From Thermoplasmata archaeon (GTDB lineage Archaea > Thermoplasmatota > Thermoplasmata > GCA-020350865): 10,301 nt of DNA. The notes below the pieces were generated by a model. The model did no database searches and had not been told where the DNA came from. It was given only the letters and a program-made list of their open reading frames with translations. Shown here piece after piece: positions 2 to 10,301 of this stretch; the stretch's first letter is position 1, and each line of letters begins with the position of its first letter. The stretch covers positions 1,370,518 through 1,380,818 of the forward strand of contig CP070751.1 in assembly GCA_020348445.1 (NCBI GenBank). The letters run 5' to 3'. The position numbers and the translations under genes are program-made.

Positions 2-838
2 GGCGTTATTGGCGCTGGTCAGATGGGGCACGGCATCGCCCTAGTGGCTGCTAAAGCTGGTTTTGACGTGATTTTAAGAGACATTAAAGATGAGTATGTT
101 AAAAAGGGTTTGAGTAAGATAGAGCGTTTTCTTGATAAAAGCATCGAGAAAGGGAAGATGAATGCAAATGAAAAGAATACGATTCTTTCCCACATAAAGG
201 GGACTACCAAGCTTGAGGATCTCAAAGATGTTGATATCGTTATTGAAGCGATCTTTGAAAATGTGGAAGTCAAGAAACAATTGTTTAAGGATCTCGATAA
301 GATTTGTAAGAAGGAGACATTTTTTGCATCGAACACGTCAACCATTCCGATAACCGATCTCGCCTCGGTTACTACAAGACCTGAACATTTCATTGGCATG
401 CATTTCATGAATCCTGTTCCTATTATGAAACTTGTAGAGGTTATACGAGGGTTGAGAACATCTGATGAAACAGCATCTTTAATTAATAAACTTGCAGAAA
501 AAATGGGAAAAGTACCTGTCGAAGTGAATGATGGACCTGGCTTTGTATCAAACCGTGTGCTTATACCTATGATAAACGAAGCAGTATTCTGCCTTATGGA
601 TGGTACAGGTACTGCTGAATCTATTGACAATGTCATGAAGCTAGGTATGAACCATCCAATGGGGCCATTAGAGTTGGCTGATCTTATAGGTTTAGATGTT
701 TGTCTGGATATAATGAACGTGTTGTACCAAGGGTTTAATGATTCTAAATATCGACCGTGTCCGTTATTGAAAAAGATGGTACAAGCAGGCCATCTCGGAA
801 GAAAAACAGGGAAAGGATTTTATGATTACAATAAGTAG
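2..838 (+). CDS. hbd: 3-hydroxybutyryl-CoA / 3-hydroxyacyl-CoA dehydrogenase, 5'-partial (start lies left of the window)
   Basis: The frame is open from nt 2: [13 protein letters not shown] contains the Rossmann GxGxxG motif, so the track's ATG at 23 is internal. Also has acidic RD after beta-2, [15 protein letters not shown], catalytic [28 protein letters not shown] and [11 protein letters not shown]. Stop TAG at 836-838. Confidence 0.92.
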
Positions 839-842
839 GTGG
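837..842 (+). promoter_or_regulatory. Shine-Dalgarno site (AGGTGG) for crt, overlapping the hbd stop codon
   Basis: AGGTGG lies 7 nt upstream of ATG 850 and resembles the extended GGAGGTGA anti-SD complement. Confidence 0.6.
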
Positions 843-849
843 TTATGTT

Positions 850-1629
850 ATGGCCTATAGAAACATAATTATAGAGAAAAAAGATGGTGTCGGAACCATT
901 AAAATCAATAGACCCAAGGTGTTGAATGCCTTAAACAAAGACACCGTGGGGGAGTTTTCAAAAGCAGTTGGAGAACTAGAACAAGATAAAAACATAAAAG
1001 TCGCCATATTAACTGGTGAGGGGAAGGCGTTTATCGCTGGGGCTGACATAGGAGAGATGAAAGATATGAGCTCATTAGAGGCCAAAGAATTCGCTGAGAT
1101 AGGACATAATCTGTTAATGAAGATTGAAAACTCTCGAATCCCCTTTATTGCAGCGGTTAACGGATATGCACTTGGTGGTGGATGTGAGGTATTGATGGCA
1201 TGTGACATTTGTATTGCTGGTGTGAGTGCAAAGATTGGTCAACCTGAGATTAACTTGGGGATTCATCCTGGTTTTGGAGGTACACAACGGCTACCAAGAC
1301 TTGTAGGGCGGATGAAGGCGAAGGATCTCCTCCTTACAGGTCGTAGCATTGATGCAAAAGAAGCCTTTCAAATTGGATTGGTAAACAAGGTTGTTGAAGA
1401 TGAAAAACTCATAGATGAGGCTAGGAAACTAGCTAATATGATTGCAGAGAAGTCTTCAGTACAGACCGGTTTCATAAAGTCACTGGTAAATAAAGGTGCT
1501 GACATTGATTTACATTCAGCGTGTTCTTTGGAGATTTCATATTTCTCATCGAGTTTCTCTACAGAGGACCAGAAAGAGGGTATGACAGCTTTTCTTGAAA
1601 AAAGAAAACCCATGTTTAAGGGAAAATAA
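850..1629 (+). CDS. crt: Enoyl-CoA hydratase / 3-hydroxybutyryl-CoA dehydratase (crotonase)
   Basis: Motifs INRPKVLNALN, KAFIAGADIGEM (oxyanion hole), NGYALGGGCE (catalytic Glu), GQPEINLGIHPGFGGTQRLPRLVG (second Glu) and C-terminal EGMTAFLEKRKP. Confidence 0.92.
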   Translation: MAYRNIIIEKKDGVGTIKINRPKVLNALNKDTVGEFSKAVGELEQDKNIKVAILTGEGKAFIAGADIGEMKDMSSLEAKEFAEIGHNLLMKIENSRIPFIAAVNGYALGGGCEVLMACDICIAGVSAKIGQPEINLGIHPGFGGTQRLPRLVGRMKAKDLLLTGRSIDAKEAFQIGLVNKVVEDEKLIDEARKLANMIAEKSSVQTGFIKSLVNKGADIDLHSACSLEISYFSSSFSTEDQKEGMTAFLEKRKPMFKGK

Positions 1630-1641
1630 AAATTTTCTTTT
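1622..1641. terminator. Putative bidirectional oligo-T terminator at the convergent crt/meaB junction
   Basis: Only 10 nt separate the two stops. The + strand reads TTTTCTTTT (1633-1641) after the crt stop, and the - strand reads TTTTTATTTT (1632-1623) after the meaB stop. GAAAAT/ATTTTC forms an inverted repeat (1622-1627/1632-1637). Confidence 0.5.
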
Positions 1642-2581
1642 ACTTCAGAATTTTACCTAGTATTTCATCTGCAGCAGTATACGGATCAACTTCCTTTTTG
1701 CTCATCTGGTCAATAAGTGATTCAACCTTGCCTGTAAACTTTGGCTCATCGAAAATAAAATCCATAAGTCGTTTCCGGATGATTTCAACAAGCTCAGCTT
1801 CATAACGCTTCCTTCGCTGTGCATCAAATCTTTTGGTTTTTTTCAAATATTCTCTATGCTTATCGATTTCATAAATTAGTTCACTAATTCCTTTGCTTTC
1901 TTTAGCAATAGTTGAAAGAACAGGTGTCTTTCTGTCCCTGTCTGTATTTGCAATATCAATATAACTCTCTATCTCAGCAATGGTTTGTTCGACACCCGAT
2001 CGGTCAGCCTTATTTACCACAAATATGTCAGCAATCTCCATAACACCTGCTTTAATTGTTTGAATAGAGTCACCAAGACCTGGAACCAAAACAACAAGTG
2101 TGGTATCAGCGATCTTTATCACATCCACCTCTGCCTGACCTATACCAACAGTTTCAACCATTACAATATCCTTACCAGATGCATCAAGGATCTCTACAAC
2201 ATCATACACAGCACTAGTTAGCCCACCAAGCATACCACGAGTTCCCATACTTCGAATAAAGACACCATCATCAGTGGCAAGCTCCATCATCCTCACTCGA
2301 TCTCCTAGCAAAGCACCACCGCTAAACGGACTCGTGGGATCAATGGCGATTATACCAACTTTTAACCCCTGTTGTCGGTATTCACGAGTAAGCTCATAAA
2401 TCAACGTACTCTTTCCACTCCCCATCACCCCAGTGATACCTATAACATAAGCATTGCCCGTATGAGGATGGATATCTTTCATTGCGCTCATAACATCAGG
2501 ATCATTGTTTTCAGCTAAGGTGATTAAACGAGCAATGGATCGAGCATCACCCTTTAAAACCTTGGCAACAATTTCATTCAT
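1640..2581 (-). CDS. meaB: MeaB/ArgK-family GTPase, G-protein chaperone of B12-dependent acyl-CoA mutase
   Basis: Motifs [10 protein letters not shown]-loop [62 protein letters not shown]. The start overlaps the small-subunit stop (ATGA, 2578-2581), suggesting translational coupling. Confidence 0.92.
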
Positions 2582-2973
2582 CGTTTCACATTCTTCCTGA
2601 TAAACTCAACAATCTCCTCACAATGAGTACCTGGTCCAAAAACACCTGTAACACCCGCTTTTTTCAACTTGGGAACATCCTCCTCTGGGATGATACCGCC
2701 ACCAACAACCAAAACATCCTCAATACCTTTCTTCTTTAAAAGCTGGGTGACATCTAAAAACAATGTCATATGTGCACCAGACAACAAACTCAGACCAATA
2801 ACATCTACATCCTCCTGGACTGCAGATTCTACAATCATTTCAGCTGTCTGATGCAAACCAGTGTATACAACCTCCATACCAGCATCTCGCAGTGCACGAG
2901 CGACGATCTTTGCACCACGGTCATGACCATCAAGTCCAGGTTTTGCCACAAGCACCCTAATCTTCCGTTCCAT
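2578..2973 (-). CDS. Acyl-CoA mutase small subunit, stand-alone cobalamin-binding domain (methylmalonyl-CoA mutase C-terminal / IcmB-like)
   Basis: [12 protein letters not shown] (DxHxxG, base-off/His-on), [17 protein letters not shown] (SxL) and VVGGGIIP (GG). SD AAGGAGG at 2984-2990. Confidence 0.93.
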
Positions 2974-2983
2974 TTCAGCACAT

Positions 2984-2990
2984 CCTCCTT
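2984..2990 (-). promoter_or_regulatory. Shine-Dalgarno site (AAGGAGG) for the mutase small subunit
   Basis: Overlaps the large-subunit TAA and lies 10 nt upstream of ATG 2973. Confidence 0.7.
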
Positions 2991-4665
2991 AATACATAGC
3001 AGGTTCTGTATATTCTCCAAAAACCTCTCTCAAAACATTACAGGTTTCACCTAAGGTAGCATAAGCATGCACACAGTCAAGAATATATGGCATAAGATTC
3101 TCATCACCTTCTGCTGCTTTCCCAAGGCGATCGAGGTTCTTATCAACCTTTGACTGATTTCTTTCCCTCCGCAGTTTCTTTAACCTATTGATTTGACGTT
3201 GTTCGCCTTTCTCATCCATCTCTAAAATCGGGATAGAAAGTGGTTCATCCATCTTATACTTATTTACGCCAACGATTACACGGTTGTTTTCATCAATTTC
3301 TTTCTGATACTTATAAGCACTTTCAGCGATTTCACGCTGGTAAAATCCTTTTTCAATTGCCGGTAACACTCCACCAAGTTTTTCGGCTCTGTCAAAATAT
3401 TTGTAGGTTTCCTCCTCCATTTTATCCGTTAGCCACTCAACATAATATGAACCACCTAATGGGTCAATGGTATTGGTGACTCCGCTTTCCTCAGCAATGA
3501 TCTGCTGCGTTCGTAAAGCGATGCGCGATGCTTTTTCGGAAGGTAAGGCCAACGCTTCATCCATAGAATTCGTGTGTAACGATTGTGTACCACCTAATAT
3601 TGCAGATAGAGCCTGTAGTGTTACACGAGCAATATTAATCTCAGGCTGCTGAGCAGTCAAAGAAACACCAGCAGTTTGGGTATGAAAACGCATAAGTAAG
3701 GAACGGGGTTTCTTAGCACCTAGCTTTTTCAACTCCCTAGCCCAAATGCGACGAGCAGCGCGATACTTTGCGATCTCCTCAAAGAAATCACTATGTGCAT
3801 TAAAAAAGAAACTCAATCTATATGCAAAATCATCAATCTTTAGACCACGCTCCATTGCAGCCTTCACATACTCAAGCCCATCGCCAAGTGTGAACGCTAA
3901 CTCTTGAACCGCTGTAGCACCAGCCTCGCGGATGTGATACCCGCTAATACTAATCGTATTCCAACGAGGAACTTCTTTAAACCCATACTCGAACGTGTCA
4001 ATAATCAAACGCATACTAGGTTCCGGAGGGAAAATAAAAGATTTCTGTGCAATATATTCTTTTAAAATATCGTTTTGAATTGTACCGCCAATCCCGCGTT
4101 TATTGATGCCCCTATTCTCAGCATTCGCAATATACATCGCCCAAATAATTGCTGCAGGGCCATTAATTGTCATGCTGGTAGTAATCTTGTCCACAGGTAT
4201 GCCTCTGAATAAAATCTCCATATCCTTCAAGCTACTAACTGCAACACCACACTTCCCAAACTCACCACGAGAATGAGGATCATCCGTATCATATCCGTAC
4301 AATGTTGGATAATCAAAAGCTACGCTCAAACCTGTTTCACCATGTTCTAACAGATATTTATAACGCTTATTTGTCTCCTCAGCGCCTCCAAAACCAGAAA
4401 ACATACGCATAGTCCACAAACGACCACGATACATCGTCGAATGGATGCCACGGAGAAATGGATATTCTCCAGGGAAACCCAAATCCTTGATGTAATCTAA
4501 ATGAGCAACATCCTCGGGAGTATATAGGTTCTTTATCGTAATCCAAGATAAATTTTCAAATTTTTTTTTCTGTTCGGGATTATCTTTTACCAATTTAGAG
4601 TAGCAGTTTTTTTCCCATAGAGTTCTTTTTTCTTTTACTTGGTTCAACTCTTCTTTATCATTCAT
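2989..4665 (-). CDS. Methylmalonyl-CoA mutase family large (substrate-binding TIM-barrel) subunit with an isobutyryl-CoA mutase (IcmA)-type active site, 558 aa
   Basis: Motifs [68 protein letters not shown] and [10 protein letters not shown]. No C-terminal B12 domain. I moved the start from 4707 to ATG 4665 because GGGAGG (4674-4679) precedes it and the 4707 start would overlap the adenosyltransferase gene. Family confidence is high; substrate assignment is inference. Confidence 0.92.
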
Positions 4666-4673
4666 ACAAGTGT

Positions 4674-4679
4674 CCTCCC
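4674..4679 (-). promoter_or_regulatory. Shine-Dalgarno site (GGGAGG) for the mutase large subunit
   Basis: Lies in the 16-nt gap after the cobO stop, 8 nt upstream of ATG 4665. Confidence 0.7.
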
Positions 4680-4681
4680 GT

Positions 4682-5206
4682 TTAGTAGTCAATACCTTTC
4701 CGGGCAATTACACCATTGTGGTAGGGATGTTTTATCTCAAGCATCTCAGTGACAAGATCTGCCATCTTTATTAACTCAGGATGAGCATACCTCCCTGTTA
4801 AAATTAGTTCAACTTTTTCTGGTTTTTCTTCAACGAGTTTCAGCACATCATCTAGAGATATAAGGTTATAGTCAATGGCAACGTTTATCTCATCAAGGAT
4901 AACAATATCATATTTTCCTTTTTTCACGATCTCCTGGGCATGTACAAAACCTTGCTGCGCTAAATCGATATCAATTTGCTCTGGATTTTCTTTTGATACA
5001 AATTCATCGCGACCATACTGGACAATGGTAAAATTGGTGAGATTTTCTGTCGTATCTAGCTCGCTATACCGTCTTCCTTTCATAAATTGGATCATATACA
5101 CCTTAAGACCTGCACCGGCAGCCCGTATTCCTAATCCAAGTGCAACAGTGGTTTTGCCTTTTCCGGGTCCAGTATATACATGAATATAGCCTTTTTCTAA
5201 TGACAT
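4682..5206 (-). CDS. cobO: Cob(I)yrinic acid a,c-diamide / corrinoid adenosyltransferase, CobA/CobO/BtuR type
   Basis: Motifs [13 protein letters not shown] (CobA-type P-loop), [23 protein letters not shown] and [22 protein letters not shown]. Confidence 0.92.
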
Positions 5207-5233
5207 AATTTCCTTCCTTTAATCGGATAGGTT

Positions 5234-5249
5234 GTTATATTTCTTTCTT
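5234..5249 (-). promoter_or_regulatory. Possible BRE-TATA promoter for the cobO-mutase-meaB operon
   Basis: The - strand reads AAGAAAGA-AATATAAC, with the TATA-like box starting ~35 nt before ATG 5206. The match to consensus is weak. Confidence 0.25.
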
Positions 5250-5279
5250 TTATCTCAATTTTTCTCCTGTGCTACATAT

Positions 5280-5292
5280 AGAAAGCTTTATG
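5280..5292 (+). promoter_or_regulatory. Archaeal-type BRE-TATA promoter (AGAAAGC-TTTATG), probably giving a leaderless acyl-CoA dehydrogenase transcript
   Basis: A purine-rich BRE directly precedes TTTATG (5287-5292), whose first T is 31 nt before ATG 5318. This ATG has no SD, unlike the internal genes. Confidence 0.55.
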
Positions 5293-5317
5293 TTTACTAA
5301 TTTTATTCCCAGCCCCA

Positions 5318-6457
5318 ATGAGATTAGAATTAAATGATCAACAGAAGATGATACAAAAGATGGTAAGAGAGTTCGCTGAAAAAGAAATAGCACCAATAGC
5401 CGCAGAATTAGACAAAAAAGAAGAATACCCTACAAAAATCCTTGAAAAAATGGCCAAACTCGGGCTTCTTGGAAGCATTATACCGACTGAATATGGGGGA
5501 GCGGGCCTTGATACAATCAGCTATGCGGCAATAATTGAAGAAATATCCCGAAAATGTGCATCGACAGGGGTTATTACCTCTGTGCATAACTCTCTTGTTG
5601 CCTCGCCGATAATAAAATATGGCACCGATGAACAGAAAAAGAAATATCTTCCAATTCTTGCAAAAGGAGAGAAAATCGGGGCGTTTGCTGGTACAGAACC
5701 TAATGCTGGTTCTGATCTTGGATCGATGAAAACAACCGCGGTGCTTAAGGGTAACAAATACATCATAAATGGCGATAAAACATTTATCACTAGTGGTCCC
5801 AAGGCTGGTGTTATCATTGTTTTTGCTGTAACTGATAAAAGTGCTGGGGCAAATGGGATTAGTGCTTTTATTGTCGAGAGCGATATGAAGGGGTACAAGG
5901 TTGGTAGTATCTATGAAAAACTAGGTATAAATGCATCTCAGACTTCAGAACTTATTTTCGAAGACATGGAGGTCCCTAGGGAAAACCTTCTAGGCAAGGA
6001 GGGTGAAGGATTCAAAATCGCTTTAAGTACTTTAGATGGTGGAAGAATTGGTATCGCTGCACAGGCTGTTGGTATTGCTCAAGCAGCACTTGATGAGAGT
6101 ATAGAATATTCAAAGCAGAGACAACAGTTTGGAAGACCGATATCTAAATTTCAGGCTATACAATGGATGATAGTTGATATGGCTACCCATATCGAAGGAG
6201 CAAGATATCTAGTCTATAACGCAGCCTATGTAAAAGATAAGGGTGAACGTTTCAGCAAAGAGGCGGCGATGGCCAAACTTTTTGCGTCAGAGACTGCAGT
6301 AGATGCCGTGATAAAGGCAGTGCAAATCCATGGCGGCTACGGATATACAAAGGAGTACACCGTTGAACGTTTGTTCAGAGATGCTAAGATTACGGAGATA
6401 TATGAAGGTACTTCAGAGGTGCAAAGAATGGTAATAGCAGGTAGCCTGCTCAAATAA
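5318..6457 (+). CDS. Acyl-CoA dehydrogenase, short-chain / butyryl-CoA dehydrogenase (Bcd)-like
   Basis: Motifs EYGGAGLD, YGTDEQKKKYLP, TEPNAGSD, NGDKTFITSG, TLDGGRIGIAAQAVGIA, RQQFGRPI, QIHGGYGY and ERLFRDAKITEIYEGTSEVQR (catalytic Glu). Confidence 0.93.
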   Translation: MRLELNDQQKMIQKMVREFAEKEIAPIAAELDKKEEYPTKILEKMAKLGLLGSIIPTEYGGAGLDTISYAAIIEEISRKCASTGVITSVHNSLVASPIIKYGTDEQKKKYLPILAKGEKIGAFAGTEPNAGSDLGSMKTTAVLKGNKYIINGDKTFITSGPKAGVIIVFAVTDKSAGANGISAFIVESDMKGYKVGSIYEKLGINASQTSELIFEDMEVPRENLLGKEGEGFKIALSTLDGGRIGIAAQAVGIAQAALDESIEYSKQRQQFGRPISKFQAIQWMIVDMATHIEGARYLVYNAAYVKDKGERFSKEAAMAKLFASETAVDAVIKAVQIHGGYGYTKEYTVERLFRDAKITEIYEGTSEVQRMVIAGSLLK

Positions 6458-6477
6458 TATATGCTCCAGTAGAATTC

Positions 6478-6483
6478 AGGTGA
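6478..6483 (+). promoter_or_regulatory. Shine-Dalgarno site (AGGTGA) for the acyl-CoA ligase
   Basis: AGGTGA lies 7 nt upstream of ATG 6491. Confidence 0.7.
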
Positions 6484-6490
6484 GATAGTT

Positions 6491-8113
6491 ATGGGGGATT
6501 TTAACTACGAAAAAGAGTTTAAAAAGTGGAAATGGGACATCCCTGAAAAGTATAATATTGGAGTTGACATTGTTGACAAGCATGCTGAGAGTAGAAGTAA
6601 AAACAAGGTAGTATTGTATTGGGAGAACGCTGAAGGTTTTGAGAAGAAGTTTACTTTTTGTGAAATGAAGAACCTCACCAATAAATTTGGAAATGCCCTA
6701 AAAAAACTTGGTTTTAAAAAAGGAGATAGATTCCTCCTTAGACTTCCAAATCTTCCAGAGTTTCATGTCTCGTTTCTCGGTGGAGTAAAGATAGGTGCTA
6801 TTCCTATTCCCTCAAGCGTGATGTTCAGGGGACATGAAATAGAGTATAGGATAAACGATAGTGGTTCTAAAGCTGTAATAACAACACCTAGATATGTTGG
6901 AGAAATAGATAAAATCAGGGACAAATGTCCAACATTGAAACACATCATAATCGTCGGAGAGGCATATGGAGATCAGCTTTCATACAGCGAATTGATGAGA
7001 GAATCCTCCTATTATTTGAAGGCTGAACCTACAAATAGAGACGACATGGCGTTTTTTTGTTACACCTCTGGTACAAAAGGTAATCCAAAAGGGGCAGTAC
7101 ATTTGCATCGATGGGTTCCAGGAAATGACCCAAGCGTAATTTTCTGGCAGCAGGCAAAAGAGAACGATTTAATAGCCCATACTGGTGATTTAAACTGGAT
7201 TTTTCCACTTGGAAATGGTTTTCTATACCCATGGCGCTGGGGAGTATCCACGCTTATATATGATGGTAGATTTGACCCAGTGCATTGGTTTAAACTTATT
7301 GAGAAATACGAGGTTACTAATCTTGCTTCACTGCCTACTGCCTATCGCCTATTTCTAACAGTTAAAGATGCTGAGAAGAACTATGATCTTTCATCGTTAA
7401 GGCATTGTATCTCTGCTGGGGAGCCATTAAACCCAGAGGTTATTAAAGAATGGAAACGGAGATTTAATCTCGATGTATATTATGGCATCGGTATGACAGA
7501 GATCATGGTTTATCTCTCGAACTTCAGGGGTATGAAGATTAAACCAGGTTCATGTGGTAAACCCCAACCAGGTCATGTGTGTTCGGTCGTTGATCTTGAA
7601 GGCAAGCCTCAACCAAGAGGTGAATCTGGTATAATTGCAGTGAAACAAAATGATCCTGGCCTGTTTAAAGAGTATTGGAATAAACCTGAGATAACCGCTA
7701 AGAGTTTCAAAAATGGTTGGTTCTTAACCGGTGATGTTCTTTATCAAGATGAGGATGGTTATTATTGGTTTAGCGGCCGAGACGATGATCTCATAATGTC
7801 GAACGGATATCGTATCTCGTCTTTTGAGGTTGAATCAGCGATTATTTCACATCCCGAGGTATTGGATTCAGCAGTGGTGACAAGTCCTGACAAAATGCTT
7901 GGAGTGGTTGTTAAGGCTTATGTTGTTCTTCACAATAACAGTAAAGCATCTGATGAGTTAGTGGAGGATATTCAGGAGCATACGAAAAATATTGCTGCTC
8001 CATATAGGTATCCTGTAGAGATAGAATTTGTGAAAGAACTTCCTAAGACTCAAAGTGGGAAGATAAAAATAAAGGAACTGAGAGGGTTAGAGAAGAAAAA
8101 GAAAGAAGTGTAA
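6491..8113 (+). CDS. AMP-forming acyl-CoA synthetase/ligase (ANL superfamily) with benzoate-CoA-ligase-like motifs; substrate unknown
   Basis: A3 YTSGTKGNPKG, SAGEPL, A5 GIGMTE, A7 TGD, A8 GRDDDLIMSNGYRI..FEVES and A10 LPKTQSGKI. Confidence 0.88.
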   Translation: MGDFNYEKEFKKWKWDIPEKYNIGVDIVDKHAESRSKNKVVLYWENAEGFEKKFTFCEMKNLTNKFGNALKKLGFKKGDRFLLRLPNLPEFHVSFLGGVKIGAIPIPSSVMFRGHEIEYRINDSGSKAVITTPRYVGEIDKIRDKCPTLKHIIIVGEAYGDQLSYSELMRESSYYLKAEPTNRDDMAFFCYTSGTKGNPKGAVHLHRWVPGNDPSVIFWQQAKENDLIAHTGDLNWIFPLGNGFLYPWRWGVSTLIYDGRFDPVHWFKLIEKYEVTNLASLPTAYRLFLTVKDAEKNYDLSSLRHCISAGEPLNPEVIKEWKRRFNLDVYYGIGMTEIMVYLSNFRGMKIKPGSCGKPQPGHVCSVVDLEGKPQPRGESGIIAVKQNDPGLFKEYWNKPEITAKSFKNGWFLTGDVLYQDEDGYYWFSGRDDDLIMSNGYRISSFEVESAIISHPEVLDSAVVTSPDKMLGVVVKAYVVLHNNSKASDELVEDIQEHTKNIAAPYRYPVEIEFVKELPKTQSGKIKIKELRGLEKKKKEV

Positions 8114-8135
8114 AATTTAGGGGGTAGAGAATTTT

Positions 8136-8903
8136 ATGAATATTGTTGTTTGTGCGAAACAGGTTGTTGATGTATCCGAGATGAAGGTTGATTCATCTAC
8201 AAAAAAGCCGATTTTGCAAGGTATACCGCAGAAGATTAGTGATATTGATAAGAATGCTATAGAGGAAGCAATTAAGATCAAGGAAAAACATGATGGTAAG
8301 ATAACGGTGGTAACGGTTGGTCCAAATGATGCTAAGGAACGTATTAAGGAATTGTTGGCGATGGGTGCTGACGAGGGCGTTTTGATTCCTTATTCCGAAA
8401 AGTACGATTATCATGTAGTTTCTAGTCTCTTGGCAGGAGCTATAAAGAAGATTGGTGAATATGATATTGTTTTATGTGGTGAGGCATCGATTGATTTGTT
8501 TTCGGGACAAATTGGACCAAGGTTGGCTGGTTTATTGAATATTCCACAGATTACGTATGCCCAGAGCGTTAATGCTGAAGGGGTTAAGGTTGTCGCTGAG
8601 CGAAATATGGGTGATAAGATGGTGACAACCGAGTCGTCTTATCCTGTTCTTATTACTGTGACTAAAGAAATTAATGAGCCCCGTCTCCCGAGTCTTATGC
8701 AGATTCTCGGGGCAGCTAATAAACCAATTAATGAATGGAGTGCAAATTCACTCGTACAGGATAAATTAGAGCCTGTGATTGAGATTGTTGAGTTAAAAGG
8801 AGTCCCTATGGAGCGGAAGAACATTGTGTATCAGGATGATTTGGACGAGTCGATTGAGAAATTGGTTGATAGTCTTGCTAAGGAAGGAGTATTGGGGGGA
8901 TAG
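8136..8903 (+). CDS. etfB: Electron transfer flavoprotein beta subunit (FixA-like)
   Basis: Motifs MNIVVCAKQV, DKNAIEEAIKIKE, LLAMGADEG, LCGEASID..GQIGPRLAG, PQIT and NEPRLPS. SD-like AGGGGGT at 8119-8125. Confidence 0.92.
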   Translation: MNIVVCAKQVVDVSEMKVDSSTKKPILQGIPQKISDIDKNAIEEAIKIKEKHDGKITVVTVGPNDAKERIKELLAMGADEGVLIPYSEKYDYHVVSSLLAGAIKKIGEYDIVLCGEASIDLFSGQIGPRLAGLLNIPQITYAQSVNAEGVKVVAERNMGDKMVTTESSYPVLITVTKEINEPRLPSLMQILGAANKPINEWSANSLVQDKLEPVIEIVELKGVPMERKNIVYQDDLDESIEKLVDSLAKEGVLGG

Positions 8904-8906
8904 AAT

Positions 8907-9863
8907 ATGGTGCTTGTTTTTTCTGATGATGATAAACTTTGTTTGGAGATTCTATCTAAAGGAAATGAGCTAGCAAAGGAGTTGAGTAAAAAGCTCACTG
9001 CAGTAATAATTGGAAAGAGTGATGATGCGCTGGCAAGGAAATACATAGCCCATGGTGCTGATACGGTAGTAGTTGCAGAGACCGATCTAGATTCATTTAA
9101 GGCGGAGGAGTACACTGGGATTTTGGAGAATATCCTGAAAGAGACAAAACCTGAGATTATATTAATTGGTTCCAATAAGAATGGCAAAGAGCTTGCTCCT
9201 CGGCTTGCATCTAAGCTTGGAGCTGGTTGTGTGACTGATTGCACAAATCTTTATGTAAAGAATAAAAAGTTGACTGCTGAACGTATAGTGTATAGTGGGA
9301 ATGCTGTTGCAATAGAACAGTTTACCTCGAGACCAAATATCGTTACCATTCCAAGGAAGGTTTTTGAACCATTGCCAAAGAATGAGAAACACAGTGGAAA
9401 TATAGTTAAGAAGAAAGTGGAAGTGAAGAAAACAGCTTCTAAAGTGCTGAAGGTTCAAGAGATGCAGACTGGTGATGTCAACGTTGAGGATGCAGAAATC
9501 ATTGTCTCATGTGGCCGTGGGTTTAAGAACAAAGATGATATCAAATTAATTAATGAGTTAGCCGAGGTTTTAAAGGGAAGGACTGTTGGGTGTAGTCGAC
9601 CAATTGCTGCTGATTTGAAGTGGCTATCCGAGGATCATTGGATTGGCTTGTCTGGTCATAAGGTAAAGCCTAGGTTGTATATTGCGGTTGGTATCAGTGG
9701 TCAGATTCAACACATCGCGGGTATGCGGGATTCAGGTATCATTGTTGCGATTAACAAGGATCCTGAAGCGCTAATTTTTAAGTCTGCTGACTATGGAATC
9801 GTTGGTGATTTGTATCAGGTTGTTCCAAAATTGACAAACGCGGTTAAAGAGAAAATGGGTTAA
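8907..9863 (+). CDS. etfA: Electron transfer flavoprotein alpha subunit (FixB-like)
   Basis: Motifs AHGAD, ELAPRLA, AEIIVSCGRG, VGCSRP, KPRLYIAVGISGQIQHIAGM and IIVAINKDPEALIFKSADYGIVGDL. SD-like GGGGGGA at 8894-8900. Confidence 0.93.
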   Translation: MVLVFSDDDKLCLEILSKGNELAKELSKKLTAVIIGKSDDALARKYIAHGADTVVVAETDLDSFKAEEYTGILENILKETKPEIILIGSNKNGKELAPRLASKLGAGCVTDCTNLYVKNKKLTAERIVYSGNAVAIEQFTSRPNIVTIPRKVFEPLPKNEKHSGNIVKKKVEVKKTASKVLKVQEMQTGDVNVEDAEIIVSCGRGFKNKDDIKLINELAEVLKGRTVGCSRPIAADLKWLSEDHWIGLSGHKVKPRLYIAVGISGQIQHIAGMRDSGIIVAINKDPEALIFKSADYGIVGDLYQVVPKLTNAVKEKMG

Positions 9864-9925: not shown

Positions 9926-10301
9926 ATGGTTAGAGATGAGGATAGAAAACTAATTGCAGAGATTCCGAAGGAGAAGATCGCAGATTTTATTTTCATGCAT
10001 TTAAGAAATATGTGGACTGTTGATGGACTATATTTCATTGGCATTGAGGAGGCTTTTGGTACAGAAGCTGCAGCTACAATAGATAGAAAGGTTTGGGAGA
10101 TTATGGGTAAAATAGAGGCTCGTAGATTAAAGAAGTTTTTTGATATATCAAGTAATGACATTCCTTCTATGATTAAGGCACTCCGTCTTTCAGGTTGGGC
10201 ACTTGATCTAGAAGACAAAGAAATCGTCGTTGAGAATGGTAAAGCGGTTGTGAGAAATATAAAATGTCGTGTTCAAAATACTAGAATAAAAAAAGGTCTA
10301 A
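9926..10301 (+). CDS. DUF6125-like protein (V4R/ATC-hydrolase-like fold suspected), 3'-partial
   Basis: Not in the ORF track because it runs off the window. GGAGG at 9914-9918, ATG at 9926, and 125 open codons: MVRDEDRKLIAEIPKEKIADFIFMHLRNMWTVDGLYFIGIEEAFGTEAAATIDRKVWEIMGKIEARRLKK...KCRVQNTRIKKGL. The W..DG.(W/Y)F...E..FG...A...D..VW.....EA.R and CRVQ..R..KGL pattern matches my recollection of DUF6125. Existence of the CDS is well supported; the family label less so. Confidence 0.75.
   Translation, partial: MVRDEDRKLIAEIPKEKIADFIFMHLRNMWTVDGLYFIGIEEAFGTEAAATIDRKVWEIMGKIEARRLKKFFDISSNDIPSMIKALRLSGWALDLEDKEIVVENGKAVVRNIKCRVQNTRIKKGL

Follow-up and report, generated by a model that had tools for sequence, protein, structure and literature searches.

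A predicted B12-dependent isobutyryl-CoA isomerisation and beta-oxidation gene cluster of Thermoprofundales-type archaea

The window analysed here, 10,301 bases of GenBank record CP070751.1 (assembly GCA_020348445.1, filed as a Thermoplasmata archaeon), carries a two-subunit coenzyme B12-dependent acyl-CoA mutase of the isobutyryl-CoA mutase (ICM) type embedded among genes of butyryl-CoA beta-oxidation. In our judgement the contig probably encodes a catabolic module that takes isobutyrate, or isobutyryl-CoA derived from valine, via butyryl-CoA to acetyl-CoA, where we infer the substrates, the direction and the electron route of the cluster from its gene content, its active-site signatures and its conserved synteny. 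The logic of such a pathway is established in bacteria, and a description of it for these archaea was not found in the literature. In the proposed scheme, isobutyrate (or butyrate) would be activated by an AMP-forming ligase, or isobutyryl-CoA would enter from valine via a 2-oxoacid:ferredoxin oxidoreductase, and the adenosylcobalamin enzyme IcmAB, its cofactor loaded and protected by MeaB and a CobA-type adenosyltransferase, would isomerise isobutyryl-CoA to n-butyryl-CoA. Butyryl-CoA would then be dehydrogenated by Acd, with electrons going to the electron-transfer flavoprotein Etf, crotonase and Hbd would carry the product to acetoacetyl-CoA, and a thiolase, whose gene precedes hbd in relatives and falls outside the contig here, would split this into two acetyl-CoA. 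Etf would pass its electrons to a further acceptor, for which HdrCBA-like proteins encoded nearby in relatives are a candidate. A first-pass annotation of the same DNA had already supposed that isobutyrate or valine-derived isobutyryl-CoA is activated, linearised and oxidised, and this oxidative reading is favoured by the mutase pocket, the C4-type partner enzymes, the acid-activating ligase, the conservation of the block, the co-location of such genes in bacteria and the precedent of Syntrophothermus.

Thermoprofundales (MBG-D), to whose lineage we assign the cluster below, belong to the most widely distributed archaea in marine sediments and are considered degraders of protein. If the proposal holds, a B12 route from valine and isobutyrate to two acetyl-CoA would raise the ATP yield from branched amino acids, these archaea would consume isobutyrate, a common fermentation product, with their carbon use tied to the supply of cobalamin, and genes formerly read as a partial CO2-fixation cycle would become catabolic.

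The mutase and its conserved partners

Two aligned pocket sites are the accepted determinants of specificity in mutases of this family (PMC7238569). When the large subunit, icmA, was aligned to the human and P. shermanii methylmalonyl-CoA mutases (MCM) and to the 2-hydroxyisobutyryl-CoA mutase HcmA (4r3u), and scanned for motifs, the segments WTMRMFSGF and KEYIAQK placed Phe at the site of MCM Tyr89 and Gln at that of MCM Arg207; RMFSGF thus stands against RQYAGF in MCM and RQIAGF in HcmA, and YIAQK against MVRNT in MCM. Phe/Gln is the residue pair of ICM, and Ile/Asp that of the 2-hydroxyisobutyryl-CoA mutase pocket. The methylmalonyl-CoA mutase signature Tyr89/Arg207 is absent from icmA, which scores 647 bits against PRK09426, below the cut-off of 876, and is found instead in another paralogue of the same bin. 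The specificity residues Ile90 and Asp117 of HcmA are also absent in the alignment to 4r3u, being replaced by Phe and by Ala (GLSVAFD against GISTDFD). The icmA product therefore has an ICM-type pocket, as the first-pass annotation had proposed, and interconversion of isobutyryl-CoA and butyryl-CoA is its predicted reaction. A separate small subunit with the DxHxxG motif (DGHDRG), together with MeaB and the adenosyltransferase, completes the set expected of a two-subunit ICM. Since homologues are 558 residues long, the ATG at 4665 is favoured over the TTG at 4707 as the start of icmA.

As described, IcmA/IcmB of Streptomyces cinnamonensis (EC 5.4.99.13) shares the separate subunits, the Phe/Gln pair at MCM Tyr89/Arg207 and the occurrence of DxHxxG in both, but differs in supplying polyketide building blocks. 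A nearer metabolic precedent is Syntrophothermus lipocalidus TGB-C1, which breaks down isobutyrate by way of isomerisation and carries the ICM-ATR-MeaB genes in one cluster, Slip_0757-0760 (PMC5017805). By description, both have a cob(I)alamin adenosyltransferase (ATR) and a MeaB-like chaperone in one cluster with a two-subunit Phe/Gln-type B12 mutase, and in both butyryl-CoA would go on through Etf-linked beta-oxidation to two acetyl-CoA. The present cluster differs from that of Syntrophothermus in its archaeal host (Thermoplasmatota), in activation by an AMP-forming ligase, in an Etf that lacks the second-FAD motif, and in uniting the mutase module in one block with hbd-crt(-thl) and acd-ligase-etfBA-DUF6125.

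The partner genes are of C4 type. Among solved acyl-CoA dehydrogenases, acd scores highest against butyryl-CoA dehydrogenase (Bcd) of Clostridioides difficile (5ol2_C, 476 bits), followed by the enzyme of Acidaminococcus fermentans (4l1f, 455) and short-chain acyl-CoA dehydrogenase (SCAD; 1jqi, 408), and on the branched-chain side it reaches 318 bits with 2jif and 279 bits with isobutyryl-CoA dehydrogenase (1rx0). Its assignment as a butyryl-CoA dehydrogenase is by similarity alone, no NCBIfam equivalog cut-off being reached; its greater nearness to Bcd and SCAD than to isobutyryl-CoA dehydrogenase fits an isomerisation that precedes dehydrogenation. The hbd product exceeds the 3-hydroxybutyryl-CoA dehydrogenase cut-off despite its truncation, and since it begins at position 8 of the PRK05808 model, about seven codons are missing at the 5' end of the contig. 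The relatives of the ligase are MbcS (NCBIfam) and the PDB entries 9g79 and 3etc, the latter an enzyme of M. acetivorans; MbcS and 3etc are the nearest. Both act on branched short acids; the NCBIfam name is only "acyl-CoA synthetase MbcS". In the acetyl-CoA synthetase motif DTWWMTE (9g79), the second Trp is matched by Gly334 of the ligase, so that the acetate-specific Trp, the pocket-closing Trp414 of Salmonella Acs, is not present, and the acetate--CoA ligase models fall below their cut-offs.

To establish how far this arrangement is shared, we used an even set of 400 genomes of the phylum and examined up to 20 kb around 32 loci with ligase orthologues. Such orthologues, at 62-77% identity, occur in 49 of the 400 genomes, including 36 of 53 in the family here labelled f24, 9 of 24 in f27 and 2/2 in f19. 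The ten genes of the first-pass annotation recur in collinear arrangement at 18 loci spread over many genera, among them two long contigs and the closed 2.32-Mb genome CP070724; a gene order that recurs in 18 loci is not a chance arrangement, and the archaeal synteny of Phe/Gln mutases with hbd, crt, acd and etf, to which the first-pass annotation had pointed as a check, is thereby borne out. In f27 loci, acd paralogues stand where crt-hbd would be. Independently, several bacterial phyla have Phe/Gln mutases co-located with thl-hbd-crt-acd(-etf). No thiolase is present on the window contig, whose end falls inside hbd, and the prediction that the missing gene would lie just upstream of hbd agrees with the relatives: a bacterial-type thiolase directly precedes hbd in 15 of the 16 loci whose sequence extends far enough, and also in the European Nucleotide Archive (ENA) copy of one further contig. 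In CP070724 it is found about 9 kb from hbd.

We also searched five genomes of f24, with a completeness of 83-94% and two of them in a single contig, for the wider context of the cluster. The cluster mutase is the sole acyl-CoA mutase in four of the five, and each has one bacterial-type thiolase, which lies beside the cluster in all but CP070724. The valine-route genes mmsA (methylmalonate-semialdehyde dehydrogenase) and mmsB (3-hydroxyisobutyrate dehydrogenase), whose absence the first-pass annotation had thought worth checking, gave no match above the family cut-offs in these five relatives. As to the entry from valine, Por/Vor-type oxidoreductases have been reported for Thermoprofundales (PMC6461988), and the VOR delta-subunit model gave only sub-cut-off matches in the relatives.

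Host of the cluster

The window is one entire contig of a "genome" that consists of 353 contigs joined by 100-N spacers. Such spacers were found on both sides of it, and the stretches next to it in the joined record are unrelated contigs, not true flanks. In this record (G000:C1) the first 252 contigs follow in order of length (1.97 Mb) and the remaining 3.15 Mb are unsorted; the bin amounts to 5.1 Mb, as compared with 2.3-3.7 Mb in relatives of the same genus, and its 16S rRNA is a single 123-nt fragment with an archaeal best score. Within the bin's own GTDB order, a search of six species found no orthologue of the window mutase, ligase or EtfB, the best matches being 70% for the mutase (a different paralogue), 37% for the ligase and 43% for EtfB. 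A tree built from 119 large subunits places the window mutase inside the f24/f27 clade (SH-like approximate likelihood ratio support 99) and the bin's native Phe/Gln paralogue with its same-genus kin (99), and unites these archaeal mutases in a single clade (97) that adjoins Chloroflexota. Large-subunit relatives at 82-86% identity number in the hundreds and come from sediment metagenomes, one of them from SCGC AB-539-N05, a Thermoprofundales single-cell genome (Zhou et al. 2019, PMC6461988). Judged by its sequence relationships, the cluster belongs to a Thermoprofundales (MBG-D)-type lineage and not to the bin's own order. The lack of orthologues in that order, combined with the placement in the tree, indicates that the contig was either mis-binned from a Thermoprofundales-type organism or recently transferred, which makes the host assignment doubtful, and the rest of the bin should therefore not be used for inferences on the cluster. 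Composition does not discriminate here, since a GC content of 0.40 and a tetranucleotide distance at the 66th percentile fit the bin and, equally, one Thermoprofundales-type relative. No continuation of the contig was found in the bin, whose AbfD-like gene (71% identity) sits mid-contig. In one relative, contig ENA ERZ27227668, the cluster is bordered on its thiolase side by two genes of the integrase family (Phage_int_SAM_4 and Phage_integrase), an arrangement that hints at, or is at least compatible with, mobility of the block.

A second Phe/Gln mutase module, icmB-meaB-icmA, is encoded on the bin's largest contig (G000:C1:48303-51362; L099:7298-10366). It is 70% identical, adjoins a V4R-domain protein, lacks neighbouring beta-oxidation genes and has orthologues in same-genus relatives.

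Electron route and direction of the pathway

Among solved structures, acd, etfB and etfA come closest to the Bcd-EtfAB systems of C. difficile and A. fermentans (5ol2, 4l1f, 4kpu), which show the same three-gene association, and the nearest solved relatives of both EtfA and EtfB are bifurcating Etfs throughout. The second-FAD stretch of bifurcating EtfB reads DGDTAQVGP (PMC9232219), with a Gly that is invariant (PMC12630350). In contrast to these systems, residues 120-128 of the cluster EtfB read DLFSGQIGP, with Leu at the invariant Gly, and a ligase gene is inserted between acd and etfB. The pattern D[LM]FSGQxGP recurs in every cluster copy among the relatives. Without the second-FAD motif, classical NADH-dependent bifurcation is unlikely, and the cluster Etf is probably a one-flavin, plain electron carrier to a further acceptor. 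Of the Bcd/Etf pair named by the first-pass annotation, the Bcd-like dehydrogenase and EtfBA are thus present, but this Etf departs from the classical bifurcating type. The bin has two further EtfB paralogues that retain DGDTAQVGP; they belong to two more acd/etfBA sets (G000:C1:1042673-1045801 and 2945058-2958702), one of which lies within a larger beta-oxidation cluster with an archaeal-type thiolase, hbd, crt and ligases.

A candidate electron partner emerges from the neighbourhood in relatives. In all four f27 loci with sequence beyond etfA, HdrC-, HdrB- and HdrA-like genes come next, at a distance of 48 to about 490 nt, and in five other loci HdrCBA-like genes lie downstream of the cluster, 0.4-4.9 kb from its last gene. 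One could further speculate that EtfAB forms a distinct subclass of bifurcating-Etf descent, in which the second FAD has been lost and the high-potential electrons of butyryl-CoA oxidation pass to a soluble HdrABC-like complex, with the "autotrophic" 4-hydroxybutyrate genes of Thermoprofundales as part of a C4 catabolic hub. We hold this extension to be tentative and on balance doubtful; if true, it would give abundant archaea of sediments a quinone-independent, confurcation-type solution to the energetics of oxidising butyryl-CoA. What could prove new is the Etf variant together with its link to Hdr, and the variant with its Hdr-like neighbours offers a handle on the disposal of acyl-CoA electrons in archaea that have no ETF:quinone oxidoreductase.

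In relatives the unit extends further. Directly after the DUF6125 gene, 19 loci (e.g. L170:12947-14401) encode a 485-residue AbfD-like protein related to the 4-hydroxybutyryl-CoA dehydratase/vinylacetyl-CoA isomerase 1u8v (345 bits), in which Cys99, Cys103 and Cys299 are kept and Tyr occupies the position of the fourth Fe-S ligand, His292. In four loci a second ligase, 40-45% identical to the first, lies upstream of the thiolase. Read from these genes, the full unit appears as a hub around crotonyl-CoA that has two or more entries as well as a candidate electron outlet.

Several points weigh against isobutyrate oxidation. Butyryl-CoA oxidation needs a low-potential electron sink, of which none is visible on the window contig, and no ETF:quinone oxidoreductase domain was found in the five f24 relatives. 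AMP-forming activation makes the oxidation of free isobutyrate energetically poor, and Phe/Gln mutases can take C5 acyl-CoAs too, as IcmF does. The AbfD-like neighbour points to a broader crotonyl-CoA hub, so that isobutyrate need not be the main substrate. Canonical Etfs, finally, can also run reductively, as in Fusobacterium, where one feeds Bcd in this direction (PMC12630350). The cluster might accordingly be imagined as a fermentative sink, in which crotonyl-CoA from amino acids or 4-hydroxybutyrate is reduced to butyryl-CoA by Acd/Etf, the mutase turns part of this into isobutyryl-CoA, and butyrate or isobutyrate is excreted. Every step but that of the ligase is reversible, the AbfD-like gene follows the cluster in relatives as it does in 4-aminobutyrate fermentation, and clostridial chain elongators have been proposed to make isobutyrate by such a mutase (PMC7764203). 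Yet the cluster offers an acid-activating AMP-forming ligase rather than an acid-releasing CoA-transferase, kinase or thioesterase, an EtfB that lacks the NADH-reactive second-FAD site leaves no evident electron donor, and isomerising butyryl-CoA to isobutyryl-CoA gives no energy, and we consider the reductive direction unlikely. Quite unlikely, too, is a division of labour in which the beta-oxidation genes serve straight-chain butyrate and 4-hydroxybutyrate and the mutase acts on another pair, such as the C5 compounds 2-methylbutyryl- and valeryl-CoA or isovaleryl- and pivalyl-CoA. The pocket residues define only that the substrate has no carboxylate or hydroxyl group, and the second ligase of the relatives is a hint of additional acid substrates; against this, the conserved partners are of C4 type (a Bcd-like dehydrogenase, an Hbd above its cut-off, a short-chain crotonase), and the propionyl-CoA arising from C5 oxidation would need a methylmalonyl-CoA mutase, when four of the five relatives have no second mutase.

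A different view of some of these genes has been published for the same lineage. Zhou et al. 2019 (PMC6461988) read a partial dicarboxylate/4-hydroxybutyrate cycle from Thermoprofundales genomes, and the crotonase, hbd, thiolase and AbfD-like gene are shared with the present unit, so that they could be the 4-hydroxybutyrate half of an autotrophic cycle, with the mutase and Acd/Etf as bystanders. That account says nothing of the mutase, of butyryl-CoA dehydrogenase or of Etf, however, and the genes lie within a conserved block with the mutase, Acd/Etf and acid-activating ligases, which have no role in the cycle; the block argues for C4-acid catabolism over CO2 fixation, the AbfD-like protein has Tyr at the cluster-ligand position, and we regard the autotrophic interpretation as very unlikely. 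The first-pass annotation had also entertained the entry of 2-hydroxyisobutyrate at 3-hydroxybutyryl-CoA, with the mutase supplying Hbd directly as a 2-hydroxyisobutyryl-CoA mutase. HcmA is indeed the top-scoring solved relative (4r3u, 555 bits), but with both of its specificity residues replaced, and with Acd/Etf and the crotonase left without a role, this idea is scarcely credible.

The oxidative isobutyrate pathway does not appear to have been described for these archaea, in agreement with the first-pass annotation, which knew of no characterised archaeal version. A full-text literature search returned nothing that links isobutyryl-CoA mutase, butyryl-CoA dehydrogenase or Etf to Thermoprofundales/MBG-D, and the same three go unmentioned in two genome papers on the lineage and in one stable-isotope-probing study on protein degradation by sediment archaea. 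ICM-type mutases as such are already annotated in archaea, for example in Cuniculiplasma.

Layout of the window and further genes

Genes were called from a listing of open reading frames together with scans of Pfam and NCBIfam profiles (Table 1). Coding is dense, with eleven genes in three units, hbd-crt, meaB-icmB-icmA-adenosyltransferase and acd-ligase-etfB-etfA-DUF6125, within which genes overlap or are separated by 3-62 bp. The ten genes that the first-pass annotation had described as contiguous over about 10 kb (ligase, two-subunit mutase, MeaB, adenosyltransferase, Bcd-like dehydrogenase, EtfBA, crotonase and Hbd) are all intact and tightly packed, and the DUF6125 gene is our only addition to them. 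The mutase and acd units diverge from a spacer of 111 bp. It contains an 18-nt A/T-rich box, TTATATTTCTTTCTTTTA, that is identical in the window and in three relatives (L017, L170 and L172), thus in four genomes of different genera, and a second box, CTTTAT(G/T)TTT, about 35 nt upstream of the acd ATG; we suggest these boxes as candidate archaeal promoters. A sigma-70 promoter scan, uninformative for an archaeon, gave 31 sites against 28 expected.

Table 1 Features of the window (positions counted from its first base) and of the downstream region in relatives (positions in the named loci)
Feature	Position	Strand	Evidence or remark
hbd, (S)-3-hydroxybutyryl-CoA dehydrogenase, 5' end cut by contig	2..838	+	PF02737 (3HCDH_N) 2.6e-67; PF00725 3.6e-38; PRK05808 449 bits, cut-off 408
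crt, short-chain enoyl-CoA hydratase (crotonase)	850..1629	+	PF00378 (ECH_1) 1.8e-75; best NCBIfam PRK05809 340 bits, below cut-off 394
meaB, G-protein chaperone of B12 acyl-CoA mutases	1640..2581	-	PF03308 4.5e-88; TIGR00750 341 bits, cut-off 241
icmB, B12-binding small subunit, 131 aa	2578..2973	-	PF02310 7.9e-28; TIGR00640 178 bits (above cut-off); DGHDRG at residues 15-20
icmA, mutase large catalytic subunit	2989..4665	-	PF01642 2.8e-223; Phe89 and Gln207 counted from ATG at 4665
CobA/CobO/BtuR-type ATP:cob(I)alamin adenosyltransferase	4682..5206	-	PF02572 2.6e-65; NF004637 198 bits (cut-off 185); TIGR00708 176 bits (cut-off 168)
Divergent spacer between mutase and acd operons, conserved A/T-rich boxes	5207..5317	.	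candidate archaeal promoters
acd, short-chain (butyryl-CoA-type) acyl-CoA dehydrogenase	5318..6457	+	four acyl-CoA dehydrogenase (ACAD) domains
AMP-forming short/branched-chain acyl-CoA ligase	6491..8113	+	PF00501, PF13193; best NCBIfam MbcS 498 bits, below cut-off 850
etfB, electron-transfer flavoprotein small subunit, variant lacking the second-FAD motif	8136..8903	+	PF01012
etfA, electron-transfer flavoprotein large subunit	8907..9863	+	PF01012, PF00766; best PDB match 5ol2_A 194 bits
DUF6125 gene, cut by contig 3' end, last visible acd-operon member	9926..10300	+	PF19620 5.1e-18
HdrC-, HdrB- and HdrA-like genes (relatives)	L188:4819-8193; also L186, L189, L195, L196, L176, L184, L180, L193		after etfA in f27, within a few kb in some f24

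In f24 copies the DUF6125 gene (about 177 aa, e.g. L017:4264-4797) directly follows etfA, a place taken by HdrC in f27. In a protein atlas it groups with other DUF6125 clusters only, some of them auto-named "4-vinyl reductase domain" or "ATC hydrolase", and a BLAST comparison showed no similarity to the V4R protein next to the second Phe/Gln mutase of the bin.

Elsewhere in the bin, a membrane H+-pyrophosphatase gene follows a bacterial-type thiolase gene and a paralogue of hbd with 65% identity to that of the window (G000:C1:672825-677391; L100:6853-11391), on a contig that also bears archaeal Rpb7/RpoE and S24e genes. Another bin contig (L002:5735-9909) encodes two HGD-D subunits and two BcrAD/BadFG ATPases adjoining a GNAT acetyltransferase, a four-gene set of the 2-hydroxyacyl-CoA dehydratase or benzoyl-CoA reductase type.

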